Source: a virus. Taken from it: DNA of 64,000 nucleotides. Numbering within the stretch: the first letter of the stretch is position 1; each line of letters begins with the position of its first letter. This document shows positions 33,901-56,832 of this stretch, piece by piece. Under the pieces are notes generated by a model. That model made no database searches. It worked only from the letters and a program-made list of their open reading frames with translations, and was not told the DNA's origin. Both the position numbers and the translations under genes were made by a program. The stretch lies in the IMG/VR virus record IMGVR_UViG_3300000095_000001; one strand, given 5' to 3'.

Positions 33901-36900
33901 ATTTCTTCTTCTATTAAGTCTCTCTTGTTAGCTACTCTTTGCTTATCTAGTTTGAGCAACTCTTCTCTTAACGCTCTTTCTAAATCTTTTCTCTGAGTGC
34001 TTCCTGCTTTAGTTAAATTAATTTCTTTCTTAATTCCTTCAATAGTAATTTGAATTTCTTCTTCTTTAGATGCACGAACTTTCTTAGAATCCTCAGTAGA
34101 AGTTCCAAGTACCATCAGTTTTTCTAGTTGAAGTTGGCTATCTTTAAAAGCTTTCTTTTTGTTATCTATTTGAGTTTGCAGTCTTGACTTTTGATTCTCA
34201 TAAACTTGCTTGTCTAACTTAAGAGTTTCTTTAGCAATTTCTTGTTCCAAAGCAATTCTCTCTTTACTACCTTCACGATAAAGAGTTGACCTTTGCTTAA
34301 GAGTTTCGATAGTAGAAGTAATTTCCTCTTCTTTTAATTTTCTGTTAGCCTCAATATCTTCATCAGTAGTTCCTCTAATAGAGTTTTTTTCCAAATCAAT
34401 TTGTTTGGCTTCTAACTTTTTACGTCTATCTTCTAGAGATTGTTCTAATCTTTCTTTTTGATTGTCAAATTGAGTTTTCTGTAACTTATTAACTTCTAAG
34501 ATTAATTGCTGTTCTAAAGCTAACCTTTCTTTGCTACCTTTTTCAGTCAAAGCAATTTGAGAGTTAATAGAATCAATGTTTAGCTGAACTTCTTTTTCTC
34601 TCAACTGCCGAGTAGCTTCTAAACTTTTGTTAGTAGAGCCGCGAATATTATTTCTTTCTTCTAGAGCTGCAATAGTGGATAATTCAGTTTTCTTTCTCTC
34701 AATTTCCTCATTGCTTCTATCTTTAGATTGTTTAACTTGAGTCTCGCGTAAAGAAATTTGAGCTTCTAATAACTGTTTCTCTATTTCTAAGAACTTCTCG
34801 CTTCCTTTCTTTTCTACTGCTAAACGAGATTCTAAAGTTTTAATGTTCAAAGCAATTTTATCAGTTTCTAATTTTCTAACTGATTCAAGTTCTTCCTTAG
34901 TAGTTCCGTTAAGAGCGTCTTCTCTAGCTTTAAGTTCTCTTTTACCTAAAGCATTGGTTTGCAGCTTAAATTGTTCTTCTATTCTTCTTCTGTTAATTTC
35001 TAGTAGATTGAAGTTAAAATCTTTCTCATCGCTTTCCATTGACTTCCGGAGAGCCTTGATAGCTTTAGCATTTTTAACTTCATCTTTCATCAGTTCAGCT
35101 AGAGTTTTCTGCTTCTCTGCTAACTGAGTTTGATATAAAGTTTTAGAATCTTTTAGTTCTTCATCAATATATTGCCGTCTAGTAATATTTCCTAACTCAA
35201 GTTCTTTCTTTAAATTGTCAAATCTTTCTTTACTTTGTGCTTTAGCTATTTCAACAGGGTTGTTAGATTTTTGACTTGAAAGGTTTAGTTCAAGAGACTC
35301 TAGTTCAGCTTTAGCTTTAACTACTTGAGGAGCAGATTCTTTATATAATGTCAGCAGTCTAGCCAACTCTACTTTCTTGCTTTTGATATTCTCTTCAGTA
35401 GTTTGGATATTGAGTTTGTTAATTTGTTCAATATAATCAGTTTCTAGTAAAAATCCGTATTTTTTCTGTTGTTCTAAGGCAGAAGTTTCCATTCCAATAT
35501 AGCTAAGTCTCTGTTCGGAAGCAGCTTTTTCATAACCAATAAGAGTCTCTGTTAAGTCTTTATAAGCAGCCGGAGTTACTCGACCTTTCATCTGGTTGTA
35601 GACGTTCTCAAACTTTTTAGCTATTTCTTCGCTAGTAGCTTCCCCACTTTCTGCAACAGCATTTAAAGACTCAACGTACATTCCTAAGTTCTCTTCAAAC
35701 TTGTTGAAATCTATTGAATCTGCTGTGAGGGTTTTCTCAGTTTCTACTCCAATTTCTTTAAGAGCTGCTAAAATCTGGTCTTTATTTTTACCAGTAATTG
35801 CAGTTTTTAGTTTTTCTAATTGTTCAGTTTTAATTTCACTTTCTACTTGACCTAACTCTTTTAACCCTTCAGTAAGGTCTAATGTTCCGTTTAAAGCCTC
35901 TTTAGTAAACTTCTCAGTAGAAGACGTGACATAAGTATTAAGACCCTTAGAAGATGAATCTAGAGCGTTTAGGAAAGACTGTAAATCTGTTTCTGCTAAC
36001 CTCAAAGATTTTTTAAGAGAAGTAGAAAATTGAGTAGCTCCTACATCGTCTTTAGTAGTAGATAAAAATGCTCTTTTCTTCTCTTGATACTTATCAGATA
36101 GAACACTAAAGTCTGCTAAGTCTTTTTCTAAATCTTTTAAGTTAATTAGTTTGATTTGACCTTCTGATTCTTCATAGCTTTTACGCATTTTATTAGCAAG
36201 AACAGATAAGTCTTTAGGTATTTCTACTCCTGCCTCAGTTAAAGCATCTCTAGTTTCTTTAAGACCTAATACTTGTTCTAATGTATATTTCTTACCATCT
36301 ATTTCTTTACCTTTGAGAACTGTCTCGATTGACTTAAGAACTGTATCTGGAAGTTTAGATATAGCTTTACCGTCTTGGTCTACTTTATAAATTTCTCCAC
36401 CAAGACCTTTCAAAGTAGCTTTTACACTCAAACTACCATCTTTAAGGTCAGATAGAAACTGTTTAGATTTAACAGAAGAATCTTTAATAGAATCCGAATA
36501 GATATCTAATCCTTCTGAAATATTAGTGTTAAGAGCAGTTTGAGAAGAATTGACTTGGTTTTGAAGAGATTTAATTTCTTCTAAAGAAACTTGAGAGTTA
36601 CTAAATTTATTTTCTCTATCTAGTAGAAGGTTGCGAGCTTCATAATACTTAAGTTGGTCTTCAAACTGTTTCTTACTTACTTCTATTACTTTCTCTCTTC
36701 TTGAGATTTCGGATTCTAATAGAGCGATTTGTTGTTTATCTCTATCGTTTAACTTATCTCCTTTACCTTTTAGTTCTTCTAACTCTTTTTTCTGAATCTC
36801 GGTCATTGACAGGAACGACTCAATTCTAGTAGTATTAGCAGCTTTTTCTCGCTCTAAATCCTCACCAGTCAGAATCATCCTAGCTTTAATTTTTTGGTTA

Positions 36901-39900
36901 GAAGTCTCGGTTAGTAAATTGCCTTTTTCTAATTCTTTATTTTGTCCTCTAAGAGCTAACTCGTAAGTCTGGATGAAGTCAGAAATCTGAGTCATTTTAG
37001 CAGAACGTTTAATAAATTCTGCATCTGAAAAGCTAGTCCAAATTGCAGATATTCTTTCTCCTATATTTGCAAATAATGGGTCTAAAGCACTTAATCCAGT
37101 AGCAGTTTTGACAAAACCTACTAATCCCCCAACAGCACCTTTAATACTGTTTCCAATATCGTCAAATACTGTAGAATCTACTTCGCTCATTAATTTTTTA
37201 GAAGCTTCTAGTCTGTCACTAAACTTGTTAAGTCCTTGAACGCTATTGTCAAAAGAAATATTAGCTCTATCAAATTTAGTAGCCGATTCTTCTAAAGTTA
37301 CGTTGAAGTCTTTATAAGTTTTGTCTAATTTGGCTGCTTCTTGACCTACTTGAAATAACTTTACTCCTAATCCAATAACAGCTCCAATTAATAAACCAAT
37401 ACCCGTAGATATAAAAGCAGCTTTAAGAGTTTCTCCCATTAATGCAGCAGACGTACCAATAGCAGCAAAACTAGCTTGAGCAGATGTAGCCATTCCTGTA
37501 AAACTTCTACTAGCAGTTGCACCTATTTGACCTATATTAGTTTTCAAGTCAATTATCTTATTCCTAAGGCTGTCTTGAACGCTTCCGAGAGTAACAGTTC
37601 CAGAACTTACTGCTTTAAAAGACCTCGTTAAATCAACATTAGTAGCTACTAAAGCTCTATTAAATGCGTTGTTCTTAAGAGCTATTGCTCCTGAACGAGT
37701 CCTCATTTCAATAAGAGAACCTTCTGCTAAACCTTGCTCTCTAGTTAATTGTCTGAGTTTACTTTTAGTTTCTATTTCAGCTTTATTTGCCGCTTGTAAC
37801 GCAGATTGTTGAGTGATTCTAGCTTTATCAACTGTAGACCTTTGATTAGCTTCTTCAGTTTGTAGAGCTACTACTTTCTTTAATTGCTGTTGATATTCTG
37901 CGCTATCTTTATTTCTGATTTTATCTAAGCTAGCTTGTTCTTTTCTTAAATTGTTTTGTACTTGGTAAAGACGTTCTTGTTGACTTTTAAATGCAATATC
38001 TACTCTATCAGCAGTAGCTTTCTTAGTATTTAAATCTTGTTGGAGAATAGCTAGATCCGTAGTAGCTTTAGTAACTCTATTAAGCTTTTCGGTTTGATTA
38101 ATTTTAGCTGCTTCTAACTTCTCAGCTTCTTTTGTTACTACATTATTAGCCTCTTGAAGTTTTTGTCTTTGACTTAATAAGACTAACTCTTCTTGACTAA
38201 TTTTAGTGCTGAGGTTATTGCTAGCATTAGTTAATCTAGACCTTTCTTTATCCGTTAAAGTTTTATCTTCTAATTTAGAATCAATATTAGATTTAACAGT
38301 TTTAGCACTAGAAACTTTCTTCTCTGTTTCTATAACTTGAGCTTGTAAATCAGTGCTAATAGTTTTTTTCTTATTGAGAGCTTCTTCTGCCTTTTTAACT
38401 TTCTCTTGACCTTTAATAATAGACGTGTCTCTAGCAACTATTGCGTCTATTTCTTTTTGAACCGCAGATATTGAAGTAGCTCTTTCTGTGTTGGTTTTAC
38501 CAATAGAGTTTACTAGCTCTTTTTCTAAAGTCGTAGAATTAGCAATTGCTTTATTAATTCTGTCTTGACTGAGTAACCTCTGCTGGTCTATTCCTAATAC
38601 TTGTTTTCCAATAGCTACTAAACCTTGATTGGAAGTATAAAGGTCTCTAATTACTCCTGCTTCTTTTCTTAAATCTTTAAAACCATTGGTAAGTCCACCA
38701 AGAACTAAACCAAAAGCTCTAAAGCTAAGCATAGTCCCTACAATACTGAGAAATGTTTTGCTAATAGCTCCTAGAACACCTGTAATTTTATTTAATGTGT
38801 CAAAGAATGCAACTGATTTCTCTGCTATTTGGATAAGGGGTTCTTTAAAAGTAACTAATAATTCTTTATAAGTTTCTACTGATGCTACTCCTTCTTCACT
38901 TCTCTTTTGAAAAGCTTTACCAAACGCAATCATTATCTCATCGTAAGAGTTAGTGATTTGTTCCATTTTGGCTTGAGAAGATTTAGTAGCAGAATCAAAA
39001 GCTTCAGTTAAATTTTCAGAAGTTACAGCACTAATATCTTGAATAGATTTCTTAGCTAAATTACCGTTTTGAGCTAATACTTTCATTGCAAAGTTAAAAG
39101 CGTTAGTCTCGTTATATACTTCCTTAATTTTCTCTGTGTTGTAGCCAACTGCTTCTGCAAAATCTACTATTCCTTGAACTACTCCTTTTCTACCGAAGTA
39201 TTCTTGATTGAGAGTAATAGCTTTACCTTGTGCATCTACTAACCCTTCCAAAGCTTTCATTGCTTCAGGAGTTTTACCAATAGTGTTTCTAGCAAAAGCC
39301 TGCATTTCTGTTGAGATGTCAGTTACTTTGCCACCTAATTTAGTAAAAGCTACGACTAGCCCTTGAGTCTCGTTAACTAAGTCTTTAGTGCCAATACCTG
39401 CGTTTTTAAGAGAAGAGTACATATCGGAAATATACTCGGTCATATCCCCTACAGTAGTCAGACCTTGTTGTTCAGTGGCCAGCCATTTAGCAGTAACAGT
39501 TTCTAATTCTGCGATATCTTTAGTTTCTAAAACACCAGCACCTTTACCAATAGCTCCACCAATCTGAAACAAGTCACTTCCAGGGGCAGCTTTATTAGCC
39601 TTAATTGCTAGCTGTACTACTTCTTGGTTTTGTTGAAATTCTGTAAATCCAGCAGAAGCAGCCTGATAAGCAGCGTTTAATGCAGTAAGAGAACCAACAC
39701 TATTTTTTAGGTTCTTCTCCAAACCGTTTTGTAGTGCATCTCCGTATTCAGATAGCCTTTCTTGAGATAATCCAAATACAATATTGACTTCATTGAGCTT
39801 TTGTTCAAACTGATTGTAGGCAAGAGTAGATTTAGTGGCAAAATGTTCTATTGCTTCAGTATTTCCGGTTATTACTGCTCCTATTTCATTAAAAGTATTT

Positions 39901-40319
39901 AATAAAGGACTAGCATCGTATCCACTAGCAACCATAAGGTTAAGACCGCGGTTAGTAGTTTCTAATGCATTTTTAACTTCAAAAATTCCTCCGAGAACGG
40001 TATCGAAATATACTTTAGCCTGAGTAATGTTTGTATAAGCAGTAAAAGCAGCAAAAGTTAACCCAACAGTTTTAGTTAGCTCTTTAGTAGTTTTACTTAA
40101 TGTAAGAGAGGTTTTGTTTAAGTTCTCATATTCTACTAAAAGCTTTCCTACTACTTTTTGATTAGCAGTTATTTCAGTAGAAGAACCTTTAAAACCTTGA
40201 TTGAAGAGTTTGATAGTTTTCTCACCCATCTCTTTCATAGACTTTTGAGTCTTTTCTAGAAACTGGGTAAACTTATCGTCACCTTCTACATTAAATTTAA
40301 TATTGCTTGCAGTGTCCAT
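30963..40319 (-). CDS. Tape measure protein (3118 aa)
   Basis: TP901-type core (FEQKLNEVNIV...A.YQAASAG), hydrophobic segments, very long coiled coil, follows the chaperone gene. Confidence 0.92.
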   Translation of the reverse strand: MDTASNIKFNVEGDDKFTQFLEKTQKSMKEMGEKTIKLFNQGFKGSSTEITANQKVVGKLLVEYENLNKTSLTLSKTTKELTKTVGLTFAAFTAYTNITQAKVYFDTVLGGIFEVKNALETTNRGLNLMVASGYDASPLLNTFNEIGAVITGNTEAIEHFATKSTLAYNQFEQKLNEVNIVFGLSQERLSEYGDALQNGLEKNLKNSVGSLTALNAAYQAASAGFTEFQQNQEVVQLAIKANKAAPGSDLFQIGGAIGKGAGVLETKDIAELETVTAKWLATEQQGLTTVGDMTEYISDMYSSLKNAGIGTKDLVNETQGLVVAFTKLGGKVTDISTEMQAFARNTIGKTPEAMKALEGLVDAQGKAITLNQEYFGRKGVVQGIVDFAEAVGYNTEKIKEVYNETNAFNFAMKVLAQNGNLAKKSIQDISAVTSENLTEAFDSATKSSQAKMEQITNSYDEIMIAFGKAFQKRSEEGVASVETYKELLVTFKEPLIQIAEKSVAFFDTLNKITGVLGAISKTFLSIVGTMLSFRAFGLVLGGLTNGFKDLRKEAGVIRDLYTSNQGLVAIGKQVLGIDQQRLLSQDRINKAIANSTTLEKELVNSIGKTNTERATSISAVQKEIDAIVARDTSIIKGQEKVKKAEEALNKKKTISTDLQAQVIETEKKVSSAKTVKSNIDSKLEDKTLTDKERSRLTNASNNLSTKISQEELVLLSQRQKLQEANNVVTKEAEKLEAAKINQTEKLNRVTKATTDLAILQQDLNTKKATADRVDIAFKSQQERLYQVQNNLRKEQASLDKIRNKDSAEYQQQLKKVVALQTEEANQRSTVDKARITQQSALQAANKAEIETKSKLRQLTREQGLAEGSLIEMRTRSGAIALKNNAFNRALVATNVDLTRSFKAVSSGTVTLGSVQDSLRNKIIDLKTNIGQIGATASRSFTGMATSAQASFAAIGTSAALMGETLKAAFISTGIGLLIGAVIGLGVKLFQVGQEAAKLDKTYKDFNVTLEESATKFDRANISFDNSVQGLNKFSDRLEASKKLMSEVDSTVFDDIGNSIKGAVGGLVGFVKTATGLSALDPLFANIGERISAIWTSFSDAEFIKRSAKMTQISDFIQTYELALRGQNKELEKGNLLTETSNQKIKARMILTGEDLEREKAANTTRIESFLSMTEIQKKELEELKGKGDKLNDRDKQQIALLESEISRREKVIEVSKKQFEDQLKYYEARNLLLDRENKFSNSQVSLEEIKSLQNQVNSSQTALNTNISEGLDIYSDSIKDSSVKSKQFLSDLKDGSLSVKATLKGLGGEIYKVDQDGKAISKLPDTVLKSIETVLKGKEIDGKKYTLEQVLGLKETRDALTEAGVEIPKDLSVLANKMRKSYEESEGQIKLINLKDLEKDLADFSVLSDKYQEKKRAFLSTTKDDVGATQFSTSLKKSLRLAETDLQSFLNALDSSSKGLNTYVTSSTEKFTKEALNGTLDLTEGLKELGQVESEIKTEQLEKLKTAITGKNKDQILAALKEIGVETEKTLTADSIDFNKFEENLGMYVESLNAVAESGEATSEEIAKKFENVYNQMKGRVTPAAYKDLTETLIGYEKAASEQRLSYIGMETSALEQQKKYGFLLETDYIEQINKLNIQTTEENIKSKKVELARLLTLYKESAPQVVKAKAELESLELNLSSQKSNNPVEIAKAQSKERFDNLKKELELGNITRRQYIDEELKDSKTLYQTQLAEKQKTLAELMKDEVKNAKAIKALRKSMESDEKDFNFNLLEINRRRIEEQFKLQTNALGKRELKAREDALNGTTKEELESVRKLETDKIALNIKTLESRLAVEKKGSEKFLEIEKQLLEAQISLRETQVKQSKDRSNEEIERKKTELSTIAALEERNNIRGSTNKSLEATRQLREKEVQLNIDSINSQIALTEKGSKERLALEQQLILEVNKLQKTQFDNQKERLEQSLEDRRKKLEAKQIDLEKNSIRGTTDEDIEANRKLKEEEITSTIETLKQRSTLYREGSKERIALEQEIAKETLKLDKQVYENQKSRLQTQIDNKKKAFKDSQLQLEKLMVLGTSTEDSKKVRASKEEEIQITIEGIKKEINLTKAGSTQRKDLERALREELLKLDKQRVANKRDLIEEEISLEKTKITKIQSLLERSTINGTFEKDLDKLKEIKVKETQIVIQSIQKQLATYKLGSKERLQLEAQLTQEITKLQKIQFGNKREKLESQLEDAKNKLDKQVALKEAALIDGVTEQELKIVEETKIKETKLTIDSIKKQMALYKAGSKERLALEANLQKEINNLRKQTLDKEKNLIQTNLEFKKTKIDINNIELEKKLLRGDIDRESFEDKLTASSQKVNLLQQEAFTKQLKFYQKGSREYLAILKDLSQLQIDYQKSVVDKAIRDIDRLTKSQNDSIEAQKQSITRQLNSSDSLAKELQEQIKLEDSRSSVIKATSDYQIGLLELTNRSTGDVEKRAKIDVQIAEMKQKSLLESQQLEINSIKNNALINEAALERERIQISLNRLELDRSKLQTEAELKKAKLNKLDQASIDALQLQLDSISDQYGVLGRSEGLISTQIANQAEISRNQIEVVKQQQDLAQKNSALDVEQAKQGLIIAGYEKQLSQLKMKGVLIEASANKEKVIGDLLTKAYDTQISLLNSRKELMDSTLSSIDTLYGIEQSMAKSDLTKDKLAREQAQDRLNNLELQQRMENESFNLEKAKNKIVRERQKVELTIAEINAKQALAMSKAEEARTNARKDATDEEKLAARLAVESAEQGILAAKANKELAIEVSKIEDQSEKNKELINARNQRNQRLQAEQSLASLTSNTADDSQVRGKAQRYRELDERSIGSNNLTSATKDNVANILKEFTESMRLRKPIDMKDISNTTQETTLTPKNNISSTNVPGIGGLGKGRTSSGTNESSNGTKKDSKDNMFTSINNLSKSIDKAEKSITKKLGLDTQSLIKTYNTNSKSINKLIDVSVKNIGKSITSATNTITGTTLKGKKVINPPKPKKGEIVPDSLRTIREAITNFKLSVDKSNIAKKKEADTRFKEEQKDNDKLQKSIEQLIEKIEEHIEKGGNVNITSPITVNGGDKNAGVDINKHLYSLVTKVQQRKK
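33180..34830 (-). repeat. About seven tandem 89-aa repeats inside the tape measure
   Basis: GS[KET].[RFY]L.[LI]E anchor recurs; first interval counted as exactly 89 aa. Confidence 0.75.
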
Positions 40320-45958: not shown

Positions 45959-46468
45959 TTATATTCCTGTTCTCCATCTGTTATACAACTTCTCCCAACC
46001 AGCAGACATTAACTGTTTAAAGTAAATAGGTTCCCCAGTTAAAATAAACTCTAGCTCATCTTGCCAGATAGGATAGTAAGTGAAACTATCATTACTTATA
46101 TAGTTATTATCTATATCTACGAATGAGCTAGAGTATTGAAAGTGAAATAAACCCTCATGATGTTCTTCATATCTATTAATCCAGATAGTATGTGGAACAA
46201 GTAAAGTATGTTCTTTAATAACCTTAGAAGCTAAACTATATATCTCAGTTGTAATTGACCCAGCTACATGGTCATCAAAATCGCTACATATAACCAGCTC
46301 GTACTCTTGAGGATTAAGATACCTACGCTGAACCTTAATAGCCTTACTTGTTTCATCAAAATCATATAGTGGCGAATATATCTGTAATCTACAGTTATTG
46401 TTCTGAGTACCTGTACTTGTATCTGATTGCCAGTTAAGTATCTTATCTACTTTAAGCGCGTTCCTCAT
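45959..46468 (-). CDS. Hypothetical protein
   Basis: 169-aa ORF in operon. Confidence 0.55.
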   Translation of the reverse strand: MRNALKVDKILNWQSDTSTGTQNNNCRLQIYSPLYDFDETSKAIKVQRRYLNPQEYELVICSDFDDHVAGSITTEIYSLASKVIKEHTLLVPHTIWINRYEEHHEGLFHFQYSSSFVDIDNNYISNDSFTYYPIWQDELEFILTGEPIYFKQLMSAGWEKLYNRWRTGI

Positions 46469-46833
46469 TAGTTGTTATCCTCTAATATTGTTTTACCATA
46501 TACTGACTTAGGTTTGTCTTTAGTAATATTAGTCCACATTGTTAATAGTTTATCTTCTAGACAAAGTTGATAGATATTAGTACCTTGTCTTAAGTTGCAT
46601 GATTTGCATGAGTAAAGAAGGTTAAGTTCATTAGTTACTAAAGTAATAGAATTGTGTACCTTAAGTAGTTTAATAGGAATGATGTGAAATAGATGTCCTT
46701 CTCCTAATGATAAAGGTAATCTGCATATTGGGCATAAATAGAGTGACTTTCTAATAAGACTTCTACTAATCTCCCAAGCTTCTCTATTTCTTTTCCAGCT
46801 ATTAAATTTAGAACGGAATTTACATTTAGACAT
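46468..46833 (-). CDS. HNH-like Zn-binding endonuclease
   Basis: CPIC...H..HIIP...N..NL...CKSCN..G. Confidence 0.7.
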   Translation of the reverse strand: MSKCKFRSKFNSWKRNREAWEISRSLIRKSLYLCPICRLPLSLGEGHLFHIIPIKLLKVHNSITLVTNELNLLYSCKSCNLRQGTNIYQLCLEDKLLTMWTNITKDKPKSVYGKTILEDNN

Positions 46834-47201
46834 TATTTCTTAATTCTCTTTTTACCTTTATCTGACCTACCATCTCTATCTCTAGTTTGTAGATAGTAAC
46901 TAAGTCCCCCACTTAATCCTGCTCCGATTCCAGCTCCTATAATTTTAGCTTTGTACCCTTTACCTTGAAGTTTTACTCCTGACTTATGTTGTTTGTAGTC
47001 TCTAGATAATCCAGTAGCTCCATAACCTACATAACTACCAGCAGCTCCCATTAGACCTATATGATTTAGGCTAATCTTTTTATTACCTACATTAGTTAGA
47101 TATTTCTTATCATTTTCTTTAATAATTTCTTTATCTCTTTTACTTAAAAGTAGATTAGATTTAAAATTTGCATAGTTACCGGGAAAATAAAAATTAATCA
47201 T
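46833..47201 (-). CDS. Basic glycine-zipper protein (putative internal head protein)
   Basis: MINFYFPGNYANF leader, two G/A-rich helices, DGRSDKGKKR tail. Confidence 0.65.
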   Translation of the reverse strand: MINFYFPGNYANFKSNLLLSKRDKEIIKENDKKYLTNVGNKKISLNHIGLMGAAGSYVGYGATGLSRDYKQHKSGVKLQGKGYKAKIIGAGIGAGLSGGLSYYLQTRDRDGRSDKGKKRIKK

Positions 47202-47202
47202 A

Positions 47203-47527
47203 CTATTTACGCTTCTTACCTTTATCTGAACGACCGTCTTTATCTTTTTTTACCAAATAGGCCTCTCTTACTATTAAGATAAGCAGCTCCACCTCCAATA
47301 GTAGCTCCTAATCCTAATGCACCTAACTGCTTAAATCCACCTGCCTTTCTAGTTAGTAGATGTCCTACTCCACCACCAATACCCGAAGATATAGCTATAT
47401 TTCTAACTTTGTCTTCATAAGTAGGTTTTTTAAATCGTTTAGTACCTAACTTCTTATCAGGAAATTTAACAGAAACATATTCATCTTTAGCAAAGTTTAT
47501 TTGACCTGGAAAATAGAAATTAATCAT
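47203..47527 (-). CDS. Paralogue of 46833..47201; frame broken at an A7 run (47245-51)
   Basis: MINFYFPGQINF leader; the +1 frame after the A run gives DKDGRSDKGKKRK* ending 1 nt before the next ATG. Confidence 0.6.
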
Positions 47528-47536
47528 AGTTTTAAA

Positions 47537-48145
47537 TTATCCATACCATAAAGGAATCTCACCGTCTAAAGCAATAGAACGATTCCAATGTCTGTCATCT
47601 CCAAAATTAACATCAATATTGTTCTTATTATTTTTATAACTACCTAAGACAGTAAAGTTTTGAGTAGCAGAAGTTCTTTTATATCCTAGCTCAGGGGTAT
47701 TTGGAAGGATTAGTCTAGAAGCATTTTGCATTGCGTTATCTTCTGGAGCAGATACACCTGGAATATAGATGTTAGTGCCAATAAAGTAACTCTTAAGTAA
47801 CTCCTTAGCTTTTTGGTAGATAGTAGAACCTAATCCTCCATCACCTCCTAGACTAGCTATCATTCCTTGGTCATATAAGGACATCATTAAGTCATTAATA
47901 ACAAACCCTACTACTATTGGTTCTATTAGTGGAATATCTAAAGGATGTATTGGTAGAACGTACAACATCCTAAAGTAAGTATCTATAAGTGTCTCATTAG
48001 CTAAGATTAGTTCATGTACTAACTCTACATCTAAATTAGAAGATATAACTGACACATTATCTGAAGGTATTAGTGCCTCAGTAAATATATTAGCTCGTCT
48101 ACCTAACCTTCTTTGAATTTTTTCTACTGTGCAATATTTATACAT
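47537..48145 (-). CDS. Head-tail connector (Mu gp36 / DUF1320-like)
   Basis: Y.T...I..R.G, I...E..ID.Y....Y.LP, Y..A...L pattern. Confidence 0.7.
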   Translation of the reverse strand: MYKYCTVEKIQRRLGRRANIFTEALIPSDNVSVISSNLDVELVHELILANETLIDTYFRMLYVLPIHPLDIPLIEPIVVGFVINDLMMSLYDQGMIASLGGDGGLGSTIYQKAKELLKSYFIGTNIYIPGVSAPEDNAMQNASRLILPNTPELGYKRTSATQNFTVLGSYKNNKNNIDVNFGDDRHWNRSIALDGEIPLWYG

Positions 48146-48663
48146 TACTTAAACACTCTTCCTAAACTAATAGCAGTATGCAACCACCTTCTACCTTCTT
48201 GAGCTACTTGAACTCCAGTCTTTACTCTATCTCTATCTTCTTTATGAGCTAATAGACCTGATTTCTTTGGTTTGAGTTTACGTTTGTACCTCTTTCTACC
48301 TTCTGCATTGGTCTTGCCAAACTCAGTAATAGTATAAGCAGAACTAAACTTACGGTACTTATTTCTTTTTTTACCTTTATCTTTTCTCATCTTACGGTGC
48401 AAAGCTACTCCACTTCCAACAACTAAAGCTGTAGCACCTACTATTCCTGCTGCTTTTAGAACTAATCCACTTCCTTTAGGTTTAAGTAGTTTACTAGGAG
48501 GTATTACTTTACTAACACCTGTTGATTTGTTTGAAGAAAAAGGAATTTCTGGTATTCCTAGTTCTCGATTTCTTTTATTTACTATTCCTAACTGACGGTC
48601 ATCTAACTCAATATTCCAAGCAAAATCTGCATCTTGTATTTGACCCATAAAAGTAATTTTCAT
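48145..48663 (-). CDS. Basic glycine-zipper protein (putative internal head protein)
   Basis: DADF/A leader, G/A helix, RKDKGKKR, second TEF/G unit. Confidence 0.6.
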   Translation of the reverse strand: MKITFMGQIQDADFAWNIELDDRQLGIVNKRNRELGIPEIPFSSNKSTGVSKVIPPSKLLKPKGSGLVLKAAGIVGATALVVGSGVALHRKMRKDKGKKRNKYRKFSSAYTITEFGKTNAEGRKRYKRKLKPKKSGLLAHKEDRDRVKTGVQVAQEGRRWLHTAISLGRVFK

Positions 48664-48664
48664 A

Positions 48665-50224
48665 TTAGTCTTTTTTTCCTTCTATCTGTTTAAGCTCTTT
48701 ATTGTATTGAATAAGATAGGGTTTAGCTATGTTATGGTAAAGAGCAGGGAACAATATTCCGAATATCACGTAACTAATCACAAGTAATCCTACTAAGTTT
48801 TTGAAGTTAATATTTTTACCGAGACTCAAAATATTGATATTTAATAAGTCGCTTAGTTCCGTAGATAGTTTAGACTGACTTTCTTTTACTTTATTAACAT
48901 CTTCTCTAAGGTCTTTAACTTCATATTTGAGATTAGCTACTTCACTGAGAAGGTTGTTGCCGTTATTGTGAAAAATAGTATCGTTAAGTCGTTTCAGTTC
49001 TTCTTCTATCTTTCTAATAATTATCTCGGCTTTAATTAACCCCTCAGAGCTAGAAGTAAGAGGAGTATCTACAAGTTTTCTGAACACGTCATTATTAAAG
49101 TTAGTGTTAGTAGAGTAGAGAGTCTTTAACAGTAAGTCTGACCTTTCCTCCATTTCTATCAGTTTAGTAGCTAATAACGCTTCTTCACTTCTATCAATAA
49201 TTGAAGATAAAACTCTTAAATCTCCGTCTCTAATAGCAAGTTTGTTAGACCATTTAGTATCTAGATGATTACCATCTTTTTTGCAGATTTTATAATTGCT
49301 AACTACTAACTCTACTTCATGGTTAAGTAACCTCTTAAGCTGTCCTTGCATTGCAATAGCATCTTCAGAATTAAGAAGACTTATATCTCTAATATTTTTA
49401 CCAATAATAGAGTTGTCCCACCCTAATAGCTCTCTAGCCTGTTGATTCCAGCGAGAGATATTAAAGTTTCTATCCCATTCAATTTTTATAAGTAAGCTAG
49501 TATTAAAATTCTCTTCATCTAATAGAGCTAATTCAGCTAACCTACTAGACATTAACTCATCTTTAGTAATATCTCTTAAGTAGCTAATAGTTACGACAAC
49601 ATTTTCTCTTAAGATTCTACAAGTATGGTCTAAGACAGTTATATCTTTACCGGATTTACTTACTAATCTATATTTTTGGTAGAAAGATGCGGTTCCCTTA
49701 TCTAAATAAGTAAGCAGTTCAGATTTAAAAGAACTAACATCATCTGAGTGAATTAAAGATATATAGGGTTTAGCTAGTATTTCTTGCTTTGTATATTCGA
49801 GAAGTCCAGCTAAATTATCAGAGATATCTTCAGGAACACTTTCTTTTGAACTAACCCACTGAATAAGAAATAAATAGTTTTCTTTAAATAAAGTGTTTTC
49901 TAATAAACTATCCGACTTTTGACTTCCAACTAAAATAATAAAATTGAGATATTTATAACCAAATAGAGTTAGAGATATCTCTTTTTCACTTCTCGGGTCT
50001 TTAACAGTAAAATCTTCAATATGTTCACCAGTTTCAAAAGTTCTATCTAAGAACTTATAAACCGATTCAGCATACATTGGCCCCTGAACGTTAATAAAGC
50101 TACTAATAGGTTTATCCAATCTATCAGTACGGTAGCTAGGGAGATAATACGTAATACTATCACTTATATATCGGTAATAATATTCATCCTCAATTTTTTC
50201 AAACAGTACACTAAATACAACCAT
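48665..50224 (-). CDS. Triple PAS-domain protein with coiled coil and C-terminal transmembrane helix
   Basis: PAS2 aa 118-220 (LIHSDD, YRL..K.G, LRDIT); PAS3 aa 240-346 (EWD, RWN..A..LLGW, IIGK, KKDG, W.N); degenerate PAS1 aa 1-100; TM aa 477-496. Confidence 0.8.
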   Translation of the reverse strand: MVVFSVLFEKIEDEYYYRYISDSITYYLPSYRTDRLDKPISSFINVQGPMYAESVYKFLDRTFETGEHIEDFTVKDPRSEKEISLTLFGYKYLNFIILVGSQKSDSLLENTLFKENYLFLIQWVSSKESVPEDISDNLAGLLEYTKQEILAKPYISLIHSDDVSSFKSELLTYLDKGTASFYQKYRLVSKSGKDITVLDHTCRILRENVVVTISYLRDITKDELMSSRLAELALLDEENFNTSLLIKIEWDRNFNISRWNQQARELLGWDNSIIGKNIRDISLLNSEDAIAMQGQLKRLLNHEVELVVSNYKICKKDGNHLDTKWSNKLAIRDGDLRVLSSIIDRSEEALLATKLIEMEERSDLLLKTLYSTNTNFNNDVFRKLVDTPLTSSSEGLIKAEIIIRKIEEELKRLNDTIFHNNGNNLLSEVANLKYEVKDLREDVNKVKESQSKLSTELSDLLNINILSLGKNINFKNLVGLLVISYVIFGILFPALYHNIAKPYLIQYNKELKQIEGKKD

Positions 50225-50272
50225 TTCATTTTTTATACTTTGTTGTTAGGAATTGCGTCTTAGCAATGCTTT

Positions 50273-50521
50273 CTAGCGAATACCTGTACCTACTAAACCT
50301 ACTGGCACTCCTCTTTCTGCACTTTCTCTAATATCGTCGTTAACTCTTGCTCGGCTGCCACTTACTCCTAAGAAACCAAATGTTCCTACAAGTAAAGCAG
50401 TAAAATCATCCTTACTCATTTGACCATCATAAATATAGTTAACAAGTGGCTGATAAACTACTGATAAATATAGAAGTAAAGAAAATAGAAATGTCTTTGT
50501 TAAATAAAGTGAGCGTCTCAT
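50273..50521 (-). CDS. Holin-like two-helix membrane protein
   Basis: Two hydrophobic segments, charged tail, directly after the putative endolysin; start moved to MRRSL. Confidence 0.55.
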   Translation of the reverse strand: MRRSLYLTKTFLFSLLLYLSVVYQPLVNYIYDGQMSKDDFTALLVGTFGFLGVSGSRARVNDDIRESAERGVPVGLVGTGIR

Positions 50522-50543
50522 AATAGTCTTTTTTATAAGTTTT

Positions 50544-51305
50544 TTATTTAGGTAAATGTAACCAATAATTTCCATCTCCTTCTACCGCCCCAACTTGAGC
50601 AATTAGAGAGTAAGAATACAAAGTCTCTTTTCCTGCTGTTGGAGTATGAATGTAACCGTTATGAGTAAACTCACCGTAAGGATCGTTAACTACAAATGCA
50701 CCTCTACCATCATAAGCAGAATCATCATATCCAACTACTAATACAATGTGACTAGCTTCAGTTAAATAAGTACCTAAAATTACAGGAGCTTTAGTTACCG
50801 TATCTTTTAATTCTTGAGCAGTCCCAGAAGTTGTAAAATAATAGTTAACTCCATAAACTTTAAGAATAGCTACTATATCTTGACCAGAAAACCTATCATA
50901 ACCCAAGTCAAGACACTTATTATAAAGTTGGTCAGGAGTTACTTTAACCTTATAAAAAGAAAGCAACATAGCAACACAAGTCAAGAAGCAAGAAGTATAA
51001 GGATGGTAGTGATTATCTATTTGGTAGTAATAATCAGTTTTCAATACATTCTTAGTAGATTTCTTTTTCTTATCTTCTATTACTTCAACGTGTTCCTTAT
51101 AAATAAACCAAGTTCTAATACCTACTGGGCTGTCAGGAAAATTAATAGATAGTTTAACCTCGTAGTGAGCATCTTTCTCTTTTAAAATCTCAACTTCTAT
51201 TTCTTTACCAGTATCTAACCAGTAGAGATATTTAGGTTGCAATTCAATAAAAGGAATAGGACGGCTTTTTAACGGAGTTCTATTGATAATTTTTAGTTTA
51301 GTCAT
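50544..51305 (-). CDS. Peptidase C39-like protein with N-terminal SH3-like domain (probable endolysin)
   Basis: YYYQ.DN, SCFLTCVAMLL, HIVLVVGYD, VNDPYG; N-terminal TPLK...WFIYKEHVE. Confidence 0.75.
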   Translation of the reverse strand: MTKLKIINRTPLKSRPIPFIELQPKYLYWLDTGKEIEVEILKEKDAHYEVKLSINFPDSPVGIRTWFIYKEHVEVIEDKKKKSTKNVLKTDYYYQIDNHYHPYTSCFLTCVAMLLSFYKVKVTPDQLYNKCLDLGYDRFSGQDIVAILKVYGVNYYFTTSGTAQELKDTVTKAPVILGTYLTEASHIVLVVGYDDSAYDGRGAFVVNDPYGEFTHNGYIHTPTAGKETLYSYSLIAQVGAVEGDGNYWLHLPK

Positions 51306-51310
51306 ATTTT

Positions 51311-51737
51311 TTATTTGTCTTTTTTATTTTTTAATTTATTTACTAACAATGTTCCGCCTAAGCCTACCCAGCTCCAATAACCCGCCGTCACCGCCACTTC
51401 CGCCGCGCATTTTAGCTTTATTAAAAACTTTTACTAGCTTGCTATCTAATTTAGGAGTGGAAGATGCGCTCTTAGGGTTACGAATACTATCAATAACTAG
51501 CTTTCCCATAGAATGACTAACAATTTTATCAGTTAAATTGAATTTATAACCATTTTTAAGACCCGTTTTTTTAAACTTATTAGCTATTAAGCCCGTTTGA
51601 GCCAATTCACTGCCTATTCCAGCTCCTACAGTTCCTAAACCAGCAGTAGCTAATAGTCCCCGACTTTTACGTTTCTTTTTATCTTTTCCTCGTGCGTAAA
51701 AAGAATCAGTAGAGCCAACAAATTTAATTTTTCTCAT
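51311..51737 (-). CDS. Basic glycine-zipper protein; C-terminal frame ambiguous
   Basis: RGKDKKKRK plus G/A helix; track frame stops at 51336, the +1 frame ends GLGGTLLVNKLKNKKDK* at 51311. Confidence 0.55.
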
Positions 51738-52135
51738 ATTAATGTAGCTTTACTTGTGAAATACCCTTCATCCAACGTAACTTCTGCTGTATCCGGAAAA
51801 GTAGCTTTAGTCACATAATAAATAGACGAGTCTAGTTTTGGGTCTAGTTTTGACTGAATAGTCTCCTTTTCTACTAAACCTTTAGAGATTATCTTGTTAG
51901 GTTCAGTAACTATTGGAGATAAGCCGCTATAAGTACCGTAATTCCCAACACTAAAATTAGTAGTAGAAGTATTTGTAAAAACAGTAAAGTTAACGGATAC
52001 TCCAACTCCCAATAAAGAAGGGTTATCTGTAGATTCTAAAGTGACTCCTAAAGGTAAATCGTCCGACCTTGGGACAATAGAACCTGAAAGAGGATTATCT
52101 TTCCATTCTCGATAAGTAGAGACTTTAATGCTCAT
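51734..52135 (-). CDS. Ig/BppU-like structural protein
   Basis: Beta-rich, YYV......G.F ending as in its neighbour. Confidence 0.45.
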   Translation of the reverse strand: MSIKVSTYREWKDNPLSGSIVPRSDDLPLGVTLESTDNPSLLGVGVSVNFTVFTNTSTTNFSVGNYGTYSGLSPIVTEPNKIISKGLVEKETIQSKLDPKLDSSIYYVTKATFPDTAEVTLDEGYFTSKATLI

Positions 52136-53086: not shown

Positions 53087-54259
53087 TTAGTTCATTGTCT
53101 GAGCCATTAACAGTTTAGGATTCATAACGATAGGAATAAAACTAGCAATAGTAGTTACAACATCGTTTTCTGGGTCAGTATTTTCGCTACGTATCTTTAA
53201 ATAGATACCTGCTTTAGGATTAGGAACATCTTTACTTGTACCTCCACCCATAATATTAGTCTTAGACTCCATAGTTGGCCCAATAGCAGAGATACCCATG
53301 TTCTCCTTCATAAAGACAATCCGGTTATCGTTAAGATAATTAACAGTAACCATTTCACCATTGGGAAGTTCTTCTTGATATTTCTCACCAAAAATAGTAA
53401 CTTTAGGTAGCTCACGACGTTCTAATAGTGTCTTAGCCATATCAGTAGAAACAAGACCAATTTCAGAAGTAGTCATTGCTCTAGCAGCATCTTTTGTACT
53501 TTTCTGGTCTAAGAAATGATTCCATAGTTTACGGCTCATTACAATCTCATCTGGCATAAAACCATTTGTATCGTAATATAAGTCTACTAATGTCTGAATG
53601 TTGCGAAGACCTTGAGCATTGTTGTAGTCACTCCAGCGGTTAAGAGTAGGTTCAACAGTATTTCCAGTAGCAATGAGGGGAACAGGGAAATGGTTGTAAG
53701 GTGCGTCTGCCTTCTTATAATCAATCTCAAATTTAGCTCCAGTAGCCATATCTTCAATAGATAATGCTCCGGTACTAGCAGCTTGCCACTTCATCATATC
53801 CATCCGGTCAACCATTCCATCTAATAGATGTTGAACGTCACCAAACAAAGTAGTAGCCAAATCGTTATTAGCTCCTCGTTGAACAGTTCCATCTGGCTTG
53901 TGAATAGTTTGGATATTACGCCACATATAATTAGCTAATTTATAAGCTTCATATAAGTCCCACATATCGTGTTCGTCATATCTGCGTCTTTGAGCTAGCT
54001 TAACCAATTGAGCTGCTACTTTTTCAAAGCTACCATGAGAAGTAACTGGGATTTCAGCACCCCAAGCAACTACTCTTGCAGCAGGAGCAACTCTACTTGT
54101 CAGCATTCCCATAAAGTTCCTCGTCTCAAATGTTTGAGTAGGGAAATACTTATCTATCAGCTTATCTCGTTTTAAGAGGTGGCTTTCTGTTTCGTCAACC
54201 AAAGCGTTTAATTGCTTGTTGATAAAAGGTTCATTGAAAAATGATGCTACGTAACTCAT
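53087..54259 (-). CDS. Major capsid protein (lambda gpE-like)
   Basis: 390 aa, follows scaffold and decoration genes; R...M.WQA..TG, G..PD..VMS motifs. Confidence 0.8.
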   Translation of the reverse strand: MSYVASFFNEPFINKQLNALVDETESHLLKRDKLIDKYFPTQTFETRNFMGMLTSRVAPAARVVAWGAEIPVTSHGSFEKVAAQLVKLAQRRRYDEHDMWDLYEAYKLANYMWRNIQTIHKPDGTVQRGANNDLATTLFGDVQHLLDGMVDRMDMMKWQAASTGALSIEDMATGAKFEIDYKKADAPYNHFPVPLIATGNTVEPTLNRWSDYNNAQGLRNIQTLVDLYYDTNGFMPDEIVMSRKLWNHFLDQKSTKDAARAMTTSEIGLVSTDMAKTLLERRELPKVTIFGEKYQEELPNGEMVTVNYLNDNRIVFMKENMGISAIGPTMESKTNIMGGGTSKDVPNPKAGIYLKIRSENTDPENDVVTTIASFIPIVMNPKLLMAQTMN

Positions 54260-56415: not shown

Positions 56416-56832
56416 TTACTTTTTAGACTTCAGTTTACGATAGGCACCGTAACCAACAGCTCCTAATGCACCAGCGGCAGCTAAACCAAGACCTACTTTA
56501 TTCTTCATAGCAAACCTTCCAGCTTTCTTGAGAGCTACACCTGTTTTAGTAGCTTTCTTCTTTACTATTGCAGTTTTTTGGTCAGCAGGTAAAGCACCCA
56601 TTCCGGCTCTACCAGACTTAATTCTGTTGCTTAAAGTATTAGCACCAATCGCCCGTTCCCCTACTGCACCATAACTTTTAGTACCTGTAGAATTTCCTGT
56701 GGGAGTTGTTGCTCCTGTAAAAGGATTAGCTCTCATTTCAGGAGTTCTAGTGCCTTTTGTTTTAGTACGTTTTACTGCAAAATCTGCGTAATTCAATCCG
56801 TTGTTACCGTAATTAGAGTTTAGAAATTTCAT
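56416..56832 (-). CDS. Basic glycine-zipper protein (putative internal head protein)
   Basis: YADF/A leader, C-terminal VGLGLAAAGALGAVGYGAY plus K tail. Confidence 0.65.
   Translation of the reverse strand: MKFLNSNYGNNGLNYADFAVKRTKTKGTRTPEMRANPFTGATTPTGNSTGTKSYGAVGERAIGANTLSNRIKSGRAGMGALPADQKTAIVKKKATKTGVALKKAGRFAMKNKVGLGLAAAGALGAVGYGAYRKLKSKK

Follow-up and report, generated by a model that had tools for sequence, protein, structure and literature searches.

Several phages carry, next to the holin gene, a gene whose product times holin triggering, as is the case for the antiholins and holin regulators T4 RI and RIII, lambda S107 and P1 LydB, and T4 RIII acts from the cytoplasmic side of the membrane. 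The cue to which known holin regulators react is either superinfection or simply the concentration of the regulator itself together with the membrane potential. To our knowledge, none of T4 RI and RIII, lambda S107 and P1 LydB carries a PAS or any other sensor domain, nor are we aware of a built-in environmental sensor that sets the time of lysis in any characterised phage. XhlA, found in phages of Gram-positive hosts, is a small protein devoid of PAS domains. PET-C39-2 is listed among the catalogued catalytic domains of endolysins (table in PMC5017753), and a precedent for an accessory protein of lysis that is tethered to the membrane and lies in the cytoplasm is the releasin gp25 of phage Mu (DUF2730; Chamblee et al. 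2022, PMC9239132). A literature search for PAS domains in connection with holins or cyanophages returned nothing relevant.

The stretch of 64,000 nucleotides analysed here (the window) comes from IMGVR_UViG_3300000095_000001, an uncultured soil phage whose host is probably a cyanobacterium, filamentous cyanobacteria of soil crusts being likely hosts of the phage family. The phage has the appearance of a long-tailed siphovirus, with an ORF of 3118 aa in the tape-measure position, and a Mu-like head module comprising Portal_Mu, a gp36-like gene and a Phage_tail_S-like gene. A block of three genes occupies positions 48665-51305 on the minus strand and encodes, in the order originally predicted, a C39_2 peptidase (50544..51305, 253 aa), a small protein with two hydrophobic segments, hereafter 2TM (50273..50575, longest ORF 100 aa), and a triple-PAS, helical, C-terminally anchored protein of 519 aa (48665..50224). 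The gene order suggests that the last of these, referred to below as the PAS protein, may help to time the bursting of the host. Apart from the genes described here, the minus strand between 46.5 and 52.6 kb holds no ORF of at least 40 aa.

The C39 protein matches Pfam Peptidase_C39_2 (PF13529; E 2.9e-15, 57.5 bits against a cut-off of 24) and PHROG 10051, 'endolysin' (E 5e-20). The catalytic Cys and His are conserved within its C39_2 domain, and Q95, C106, H186 and D208 are invariant in 10 homologues. An AlphaFold2 (AF2) model built from the 10-sequence alignment, of low confidence (pLDDT 56), places C106 on a helix (104-117) and H186 on a strand (185-194), preceded by an all-beta domain (1-76) that is predicted, with weak support, to be SH3-like. 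Such a domain is common only to the homologues in the Microcoleus phage My-WqHQDG and in L049, a temperate-looking contig. The fold search with this model gave weak SH3b and NlpC/P60 matches and matches to the CyaB C39 domain and an actin maturation protease, none of them significant. No TM or SAR segment was found in a hydrophobicity scan, and the protein is a candidate soluble endolysin. Among ORFs of at least about 55-60 aa in the window and in a complete relative of 151,199 bp with terminal repeats, C39_2 was the only peptidoglycan-hydrolase-type family identified at E <= 1e-4. Homologues occur in 29 database phages, all 29 of them cyanophages and many annotated as endolysins, the identity to the genes of S-N03, S-CBP2, A-HIS1 and TR020 being 26-37%; a search of 185,579 species genomes gave no match. 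We know of no experimental demonstration that members of this C39 clade cleave peptidoglycan.

The longest ORF of the 2TM gene overlaps the stop of the C39 gene by 32 nt, and the start conserved among the homologues is M19 (position 50521), which gives a protein of 82 aa. Its hydrophobic segments lie at about residues 5-27 and 39-56 and are separated by an 11-residue loop, with a positive N-terminus and a charged C-terminal tail of 26-37 aa. The protein thus shows the features of class II holins, being small, with two TMDs and a charged C-terminal tail and with its gene adjoining that of a candidate endolysin, and is described here as holin-like with a predicted class II-type topology. The nearest ESM-Atlas clusters are Phage_holin_1 at 0.91 and 0.90 (language-model features), the former with 179 shared features, where the chance rate of the tool for values of at least 0.9 is 4-10%. 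No match to the 2TM protein was obtained in Pfam, PHROG, NCBIfam or PADLOC, and the proteins of the block did not match any holin, antiholin, XhlA, releasin or spanin family in these four collections. Two unrelated phage contexts, neither with a PAS gene, also have a small membrane ORF after a C39 gene: My-WqHQDG, where the pair is located away from the structural genes, and L049, where it adjoins an integrase. BLASTP showed no similarity between the small ORF of My-WqHQDG and the 2TM protein, so that only the architecture is parallel. The C39-2TM pair reads well as an endolysin and a holin.

The surroundings of the block were compared between the window and 14 relatives, down to 51% identity. 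The order of major capsid gene, C39, 2TM, PAS, variable gene and adaptor-like gene is kept in all 14 related loci, including the endolysin-holin-PAS order proposed earlier as a check on the link to lysis, and the 2TM and PAS genes, a few nt apart, are never separated (14/14). Insertions occur before C39, between C39 and 2TM (L005) and always after PAS. The upstream anchor, the major capsid gene (53087..54259, minus strand; PHROG 29, E 9.8e-33), encodes a protein with 28% identity over 95% of its length to the capsid proteins of the Pseudanabaena phages PA-SR01 and Pam2. The variable gene directly downstream of the block (48145..48663, minus strand) here encodes a very basic protein of 172 aa with one hydrophobic segment; this slot holds at least three different genes among the relatives, and soil-metagenome contigs skip positions 48325-48640 within it. 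The downstream anchor (47537..48145, minus strand) encodes an adaptor-like protein of 202 aa, weakly Mu gp36-like (PF07030, E 0.028), with 68-98% identity across the family and 26% identity to its homologue in PA-SR01 and Pam2. The block is thus embedded in a head-neck operon. In PA-SR01, the nearest cultured relative, the capsid and adaptor genes do not have the block between them, which indicates an inserted module rather than a core part of the head. Predicted promoters and terminators were fewer than in shuffled sequence, and none of them delimits the block.

The original prediction had placed the PAS gene in a lysis cassette, and this reading of the block is plausible, since C39 is the sole recognisable lysin-type family and 2TM is holin-like; the block is, however, not a free-standing cassette but lies inside the head-neck operon. 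This location brings up a quite improbable alternative, in which the C39 protein would be an entry enzyme packaged in the virion, and the 2TM and PAS proteins ejection or membrane-channel components or membrane-bound head-assembly factors. The block lies among small basic proteins that carry a conserved N-terminal leader-like motif (M-I-x-F-x-G...F/Y) and may themselves be packaged, but the PAS protein does not have this leader, and the absence of the block from the PA-SR01 position speaks against a structural part. The C39 homologue of Arthronema virus TR020 likewise directly follows the capsid gene, whereas the pairs of C39 and small membrane genes in My-WqHQDG and L049 have the other locations given above. 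The C39 peptidase is more conserved than the capsid protein between the window and G003 (86% against 57.5%), which favours this alternative; in long-tailed siphoviruses such as this phage appears to be, however, entry lysins are normally located in tail proteins, and no other endolysin would be left for exit.

The same leader-bearing neighbours allow a further reading, in which the C39 protein would be a leader peptidase maturing them and the 2TM and PAS proteins a processing or export system. C39 peptidases classically cut off leader peptides, and the fold matches to CyaB and the actin maturation protease, although not significant, would fit; the putative leaders of the several nearby genes concerned, however, end in F or Y and not in Gly-Gly. 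The occurrence of C39 homologues in 29 cyanophages of very different types and the N-terminal SH3-like domain (weakly supported), which is typical of cell-wall enzymes, also argue against this reading, under which the phage would have no lysin at all, and we consider it very improbable indeed.

In the PAS protein, PAS_3 (PF08447) matches residues 134-201 (E 5.2e-12, 46.3 bits, cut-off 25.6), two further Pfam PAS profiles lie above their cut-offs (PF13426, 31.8 bits against 27; PF00989, 31.3 against 22.6), and TIGR00229 matches two stretches, the best at 240-344 (E 2.8e-13, 50.1 bits, cut-off 22.9). These significant profile matches cover the second and third domains only. The AF2 model shows three domains of beta-beta-alpha-alpha-beta-beta-beta order (1-102, 118-218 and 246-344), with the five-stranded antiparallel sheet and flanking helices of the PAS fold, the first domain showing the topology only. 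Its best Foldseek match is the triple-PAS protein PpsR (4hh2; E 3.5e-14, 381 columns), and the closest sequence and fold matches are the heterodimerising PAS-B domains of ARNT, PER and HIF. The N-terminal domain (49919..50224, minus strand, residues 1-102) is recognised by predicted fold only (pLDDT 50-83): it has no Pfam match, hhalign comparisons with the other two domains are not significant, and it aligns only within PAS-A+PAS-B pairs of AHR/CLOCK-type proteins (VIA-align). The three PAS folds of the original prediction are thus two by sequence and one by predicted fold.

The second PAS domain (49568..49873, minus strand, residues 118-219), to which the PAS_3 match belongs, ends in a DIT motif. 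It superposes on the YtvA LOV domain (residues 115-236; VIA Z 15.3, rmsd 2.2 over 120 residues), but the NCRFLQ cysteine motif of LOV domains is absent from the protein sequence. D199, H200, C202 and Y215-I219 (YLRDI) are invariant and T220, which completes the DIT, is nearly so; the H200/C202 pair may serve as a lead, though no more than that, for cofactor or ligand binding. A J-alpha-like helix (220-233) directly follows the DIT motif, an arrangement that is the usual signal-transmitting junction of PAS arrays. The third domain (49193..49489, minus strand, residues 246-344) has Pfam matches to PAS_8 (0.023) and PAS_4 (0.096) and, over residues 225-346, resembles the fatty-acid-binding PAS domain of RpfR (VIA Z 14.7). 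It aligns in register with the second domain across 85 columns (hhalign, E 0.001), yet all three domains are very diverged from one another. This divergence, together with the lack of a close cellular homologue or of any homologue in the 185,579 species genomes, gives no support to the earlier proposal that the array was captured from a host kinase.

Beyond the PAS domains, the AF2 model has long helices at 345-372, 393-419 and 425-461. The most conserved segment of the protein (48950..49063, minus strand, residues 388-425) comprises a PLT motif and, after it, an amphipathic helix, with a mean column identity of 0.90 against 0.60-0.84 elsewhere and a long stretch of invariant residues from E394 to L425. 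The PLT-helix motif is retained in two remote homologues, P0034 and P0035, and the segment is a candidate effector or interaction surface. By eye the PLT motif recalls the TPLT of HisKA, but a degenerate HisKA was not supported in Pfam or PDB searches. The coiled coil of the original prediction corresponds to a long helix (48842..48949, minus strand, residues 426-461) that the model retains at low pLDDT, its coiled-coil character resting on weak matches to CorA, SKA2 and Uso1 (Pfam) and Borealin (PDB profile). There follow, as predicted, a single strongly hydrophobic TM helix (48725..48811, minus strand, residues 472-500, Kyte-Doolittle 2.53) and a charged tail of 19 residues (48668-48724); Y485, F488, P493, Y496 and P502 in the TM region are invariant. 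The absence of HisKA, HATPase_c and GGDEF domains was likewise confirmed in Pfam and NCBIfam. A profile of the C-terminal 175 residues yielded coiled-coil noise only against the PDB, and an ESM-Atlas query with the same residues no usable match.

The PAS family is very small and sharply defined, amounting to three clusters among 1.84 billion representatives. Its 33 full-length homologues share 51-100% identity and are all 513-520 aa long. Searched against the same representatives, the C-terminal profile retrieved this family and the weak but real relatives P0034 and P0035 only. Each of them is a singleton, the two contigs being 1.9 and 2.9 kb long, and their genomic context is therefore nearly uninformative; the little flanking DNA holds no recognisable C39 or holin gene, and P0035 adjoins an HTH protein, a PD-(D/E)XK nuclease and a DNA methylase. 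Among 50,697 phage records, no match was obtained by tblastn with the PAS protein or by megablast with a 12-kb query. No relative of the family was found in the 185,579 species genomes, and thus neither a prophage copy nor a direct assignment of the host was obtained. Searches of sequencing runs identified two with relatives of about 88-90% identity as short contigs, no RNA being among them.

It is possible, if rather unlikely, that the PAS protein, made late and anchored in the membrane, has a function outside lysis and that its gene stands beside the holin-like gene only through joint insertion. It might then be a decoy or partner of host PAS regulators, a modulator of superinfection or of the membrane state, or serve some other localisation at the membrane. 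PAS domains are common protein-protein interaction modules, and such a role would suit a PAS protein with no enzymatic output whose closest matches are the heterodimerising PAS-B domains. The neighbours of P0035 are not lysis genes and, compared with PA-SR01, the block is inserted, but the adjacency of 2TM and PAS has been kept in 14/14 relatives despite variable genes inserted all around, and the C-terminal anchor and conserved juxtamembrane helix point to a partner at the membrane.

The reading preferred here, which we hold tentatively and as somewhat short of probable, is that the PAS protein intervenes in lysis from the membrane, late in infection, as a regulator of the antiholin or co-holin type. 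Its gene would be expressed late, in one operon with those of a soluble C39-type endolysin and the two-segment holin-like protein, and the PAS protein would face the cytoplasm, tethered to the inner membrane by its C-terminal tail. In the most likely mode of action, the conserved helix, the membrane helix or both would bind the holin-like protein and set the time of its triggering, while the PAS array would either mediate oligomerisation or respond to some ligand or state of the cytoplasm. The conserved 388-425 helix is what would be expected of an output or interaction site and favours a regulator; the position of the block within the head-neck operon, among putatively packaged small basic proteins, weakens the case. 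The functional argument for the PAS protein is one of synteny, that is, of guilt by association throughout. The more specific proposal, that the array senses host redox, energy or light-driven metabolism and gates the holin through the juxtamembrane helix, appears improbable, and gating by light, dark or redox state is speculation, since no cofactor motif is recognisable in the protein.

If the regulator reading is correct, a lysis accessory protein built of signal-sensing domains would couple the bursting of the host to a chemical or physiological cue. This would bear on the timing of carbon and nutrient release by phages of soil-crust or bloom-forming cyanobacteria, and engineers would gain a lysis module that a ligand can control. 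Should the idea of sensing prove wrong, the succession of PAS domains, coiled coil and C-terminal anchor is still an undescribed architecture, and the PAS family that carries it stands in a clearly testable genetic context.

Compared with the known systems, the C39 protein agrees with the PET-C39-2 class and the cyanophage C39 genes in its PF13529 and PHROG 10051 matches, and differs from the genes of S-N03, S-CBP2, A-HIS1 and TR020 in its additional N-terminal SH3-like domain. The PAS protein resembles the antiholins in its position beside a holin-like gene and has no sequence similarity to them. An i-spanin requires an N-terminal TMD, a periplasmic coiled coil and a lipoprotein as its partner, and the predicted topology of the PAS protein is the opposite. 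With XhlA of the PBSX and SPbeta lysis modules it shares a location beside a holin-like gene and a C-terminal TM helix preceded by a helical or coiled-coil stretch, but PF10779 is not among the Pfam matches at E <= 0.1. Like Mu gp25, it is predicted to be membrane-tethered and cytoplasm-facing, is encoded beside lysis-type genes and has no enzymatic domain. The gp25 protein is, however, small, has its membrane anchor, a TMD, at the N-terminus, and the endolysin on which it acts is of the SAR type (PMC9239132), whereas the PAS protein has a C-terminal anchor, a cytoplasmic part of about 470 aa and three PAS-type domains; the lack of a DUF2730 match in Pfam, the C-terminal TM helix and a C39 protein without a SAR or TM segment set it apart from the Mu releasin. 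Tandem PAS domains with helical linkers are shared with PpsR (4hh2), FixL (8js5) and DosP (9cmf), as are, with multi-PAS sensors, the DIT-type junction after the second domain and the long helix after the last. Unlike the multi-PAS kinases and PpsR, the PAS protein has no HisKA, HATPase, GGDEF, EAL or HTH output, and a sensor histidine kinase was rejected since both the H-box of HisKA/DHp and HATPase_c are absent in Pfam and NCBIfam searches; in the place of an output domain it carries the conserved helix, the predicted coiled coil and the C-terminal membrane anchor.

The three open reading frames (ORFs) follow one another head to tail, all on the minus strand, from 51305 to 48665. The first (50544-51305, 253 aa) was assigned to the Pfam family Peptidase_C39_2 with an E-value of 2.9e-15, far over the cut-off, and also matched PHROG 10051 'endolysin' (E 5e-20). 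Residues Q95, C106, H186 and D208 are invariant in 10 homologues and are placed in the low-confidence predicted structure as a papain-like catalytic set would be, while residues 1-76 are predicted to form an all-beta domain with a weak likeness, short of a significant match, to the bacterial SH3 domains of cell-wall enzymes. The protein carries no hydrophobic segment, so that a SAR endolysin was ruled out. Identity of the window's proteins to their counterparts in the 151-kb relative is 86% for the C39 peptidase and only 57.5% for the major capsid protein (53087-54259), which would represent an unusually strong constraint for a lysin.

Peptidase_C39_2 is among the catalogued catalytic domain classes of endolysins (table in PMC5017753). 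A Pfam scan of greedily called ORFs of at least about 55-60 aa in the window and the complete relative, including a 3118-aa ORF and the ORFs that cross the boundaries between analysed segments, found no lysozyme, amidase, transglycosylase, M15, M23, CHAP or NlpC/P60 domain. The C39_2 peptidase is the only candidate lysin of the phage. All the 29 phage records with a C39 homologue are cyanophages, many with an endolysin annotation. In Microcoleus phage My-WqHQDG, which has the closest homologue (37% identity, N-terminal domain included), the C39 gene and a following small ORF with two hydrophobic segments form a two-gene unit between opposite-strand genes, and a C39 homologue sharing this N-terminal domain stands in a temperate-looking IMG/VR contig ahead of a hydrophobic ORF of 55 aa, behind which comes an integrase. 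This recurrence favours an endolysin-holin pair; as counterpoints, the C39 homologue of Arthronema virus TR020 also lies directly behind the capsid gene, and BLASTP detected no similarity between the small ORFs adjoining the C39 genes of the window and My-WqHQDG. A leader-peptidase system, another reading weighed for this peptidase, is considered very improbable.

The second ORF (50273-50575, minus strand) encodes 100 aa in its longest frame, but the conserved start of its homologues, M-K-R-S-L-Y, corresponds to M19 (50521), giving 82 aa. Its N-terminus is positive, a loop of 11 residues separates the two hydrophobic segments, and the tail, 26-37 residues long, is charged, which is the layout of a class II holin. 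It was unmatched in every HMM library searched, and among ESM-Atlas clusters it lies nearest to Phage_holin_1 families (179 shared language-model features at 0.91, 171 at 0.90), a proximity to be treated as a lead and not as proof. At its C-terminus the window protein is shorter than its relatives by about 10 residues, which accounts for the gap of 48 nt (50225-50272) before the start of the third ORF, the PAS protein; in most relatives this gap is a few nt.

The complete 151,199-bp relative, which carries a 127-bp terminal repeat, matches the window collinearly over its 45.5-118 kb. In the window and all 14 related loci the order runs from the major capsid gene through the HHH protein, p141, p133b and an optional insert to C39, and onward through the two-segment gene and the PAS gene to a variable small basic gene and a gp36-like protein. 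One locus has an insert behind C39, and the pair formed by the two-segment and PAS genes is unbroken in the window and 14 of 14 loci, with a spacing of a few nt in most. The block is embedded in the head-neck operon, and the phage's head module is Mu-like (Portal_Mu, the gp36-like gene and a Phage_tail_S/Neck1-like gene); a promoter and terminator scan found none that delimits the block. In such surroundings a virion, ejection or assembly role for the PAS protein has to be weighed, which we regard as improbable. The closest cultured relatives are the Pseudanabaena phages PA-SR01 and Pam2 (137-143 kb; 28% identity for the capsid protein and 26% for the gp36-like protein), and since the capsid-to-gp36-like interval of PA-SR01 holds just two small genes, the block is an insertion in a conserved head-module backbone and not a core structural element. 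It is well defined and very likely related to lysis. From the exclusive occurrence of C39 homologues in cyanophages and the Pseudanabaena-phage kinship we infer a filamentous cyanobacterial host; relatives at 88-90% occur as short contigs in two public runs, one labelled soil metagenome and neither of them a confirmed RNA run.

Several other features of the phage were observed. Small, very basic, glycine-rich proteins with a common N-terminal leader-like motif, M-[IV]-x-F-x-G ... [FY]-[GSA], are encoded in the window at 46833-47201, 47240-47527, 48145-48663, 51336-51737 and 56416-56832, and in L001, L003, L005, L012, L014 and other related loci. They act as variable cassettes: the slots before C39 and after the PAS gene are filled by different members, in L005 one is inserted between C39 and the two-segment gene, and metagenome contigs of relatives omit exactly these genes (46829-47204, 47245-47537, 48325-48640 and 51306-51744). 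The 3118-aa ORF (30963-40319) has no Pfam domain and occupies the position of the PA-SR01 tape-measure gene; if it is a tape measure, an exceptionally long tail would follow. Within the structural module, a 121-aa ORF (46468-46833) with two CxxC pairs is HNH-like by eye, with no Pfam match at E <= 1e-4. The outer regions of the 151-kb relative (1-45 and 118-151 kb; L021-L028) encode colicin/cloacin-immunity-like, SUKH (SMI1/KNR4) and LRR proteins, a MoxR-VWA pair, STAND NTPase-like domains, a Macro domain, an RNA ligase and an intein, and look like a rich stock of candidate counter-defence or immunity genes. CheckV completeness is only 48-49% for the two relatives with direct terminal repeats (146.5 and 151.2 kb), and the protein index assigns the window's own PAS protein to a 325,497-bp contig; the discrepancy may reflect a concatemer, a chimera or a larger genome.

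The PAS protein (48665-50224, minus strand, 519 aa) was analysed with Pfam, NCBIfam, AlphaFold2, Foldseek and VIA-align. Pfam clearly identified one domain at residues 134-201 (PAS_3, E 5.2e-12) and another only weakly, and NCBIfam TIGR00229 matched two stretches, the better at 240-344 (E 2.8e-13). The AlphaFold2 model, built from 29 homologues (mean pLDDT 67.5), has PAS-topology domains at 1-102, 118-218 and 246-344, helices at 345-372, 393-419 and 425-461 and a terminal helix at 475-516. The best Foldseek match in the PDB is the triple-PAS regulator PpsR (381 columns); in VIA-align, domain 2 matches LOV domains (Z 15.3) and domain 3 the RpfR PAS domain (Z 14.7), while the PAS likeness of domain 1 is confined to its topology and to its co-alignment with PAS-A of AHR/CLOCK-type proteins. 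The gene order and two of the three PAS folds of the original prediction are hence confirmed, the third (domain 1) being a structural prediction. The protein's single C-terminal transmembrane helix is borne out by a strongly hydrophobic stretch at 472-500 (Kyte-Doolittle 2.53), a putative membrane tether, and so is the lack of a HisKA, HATPase or GGDEF-type output, since searches of Pfam, NCBIfam and PDB profiles found no kinase, cyclase or DNA-binding output domain. With no signal sequence, the large N-terminal part must remain in the cytoplasm, the normal working place of true PAS domains. A canonical DIT motif closes PAS2 (49568-49873, minus strand), followed by a helix, and the LOV cysteine motif is not present. 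A D-H-x-C motif (D199, H200 and C202) on one PAS2 beta strand is invariant in 29 of 29 aligned homologues, and H200/C202 may ligate a metal or heme. This pair is the sole hint of sensing, and a lead; light, redox or ligand sensing by the PAS array is possible but unsupported.

In an index of 5.8 billion proteins, 33 clusters of full-length homologues (513-520 aa, 51-100% identity) were found and none beyond these. A search of 1.84 billion representatives with a profile built from the last 175 residues retrieved the family itself and two remote relatives, P0034 (391 aa, two PAS domains) and P0035 (257 aa, one PAS domain), whose homology BLASTP confirms (P0034 with the family member P0016, 23% over 380 residues, E 2e-15; P0035 with residues 348-449 of P0001, 32%, E 7e-7). 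Both retain the PLT motif, the conserved helix, the coiled coil and the C-terminal transmembrane helix, so that the conserved unit is this C-terminal module, preceded by PAS domains in varying number. In the main family, residues 388-425 are the best conserved (mean column identity 0.90, against 0.66-0.70 for the PAS domains and 0.60 for the transmembrane helix). As to the surroundings of the two remote relatives, one, on a contig of 22.5% GC, is flanked by an acidic coiled-coil ORF and a multi-TM ORF, and the other adjoins an HTH protein, a PD-(D/E)XK nuclease and a DNA methylase. The PAS protein is a real, conserved and undescribed architecture. Its supposed capture from a host kinase is unsupported: close cellular relatives are lacking, a search of 185,579 species genomes gave no match, and the divergence among the three domains is too great.

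The strict pairing with the two-segment gene, the conserved juxtamembrane helix and the absence of an enzymatic output place a lysis-timing accessory first among the possible roles, tentatively and on position and architecture alone. Tethered by its C-terminal helix and with its domains in the cytoplasm, the protein would act by binding a membrane partner. A late membrane-anchored PAS protein serving some other purpose, for instance as a decoy of host regulators, is judged rather unlikely. Sensor-gated lysis would be an attractive and testable form of the lysis-timing role, for which synteny is the only argument. Although it has no homology to the PAS protein and the two are anchored at opposite ends, the Mu releasin gp25 (PMC9239132) offers a precedent for a lysis accessory protein that is cytoplasmic and held at the membrane by a tether.
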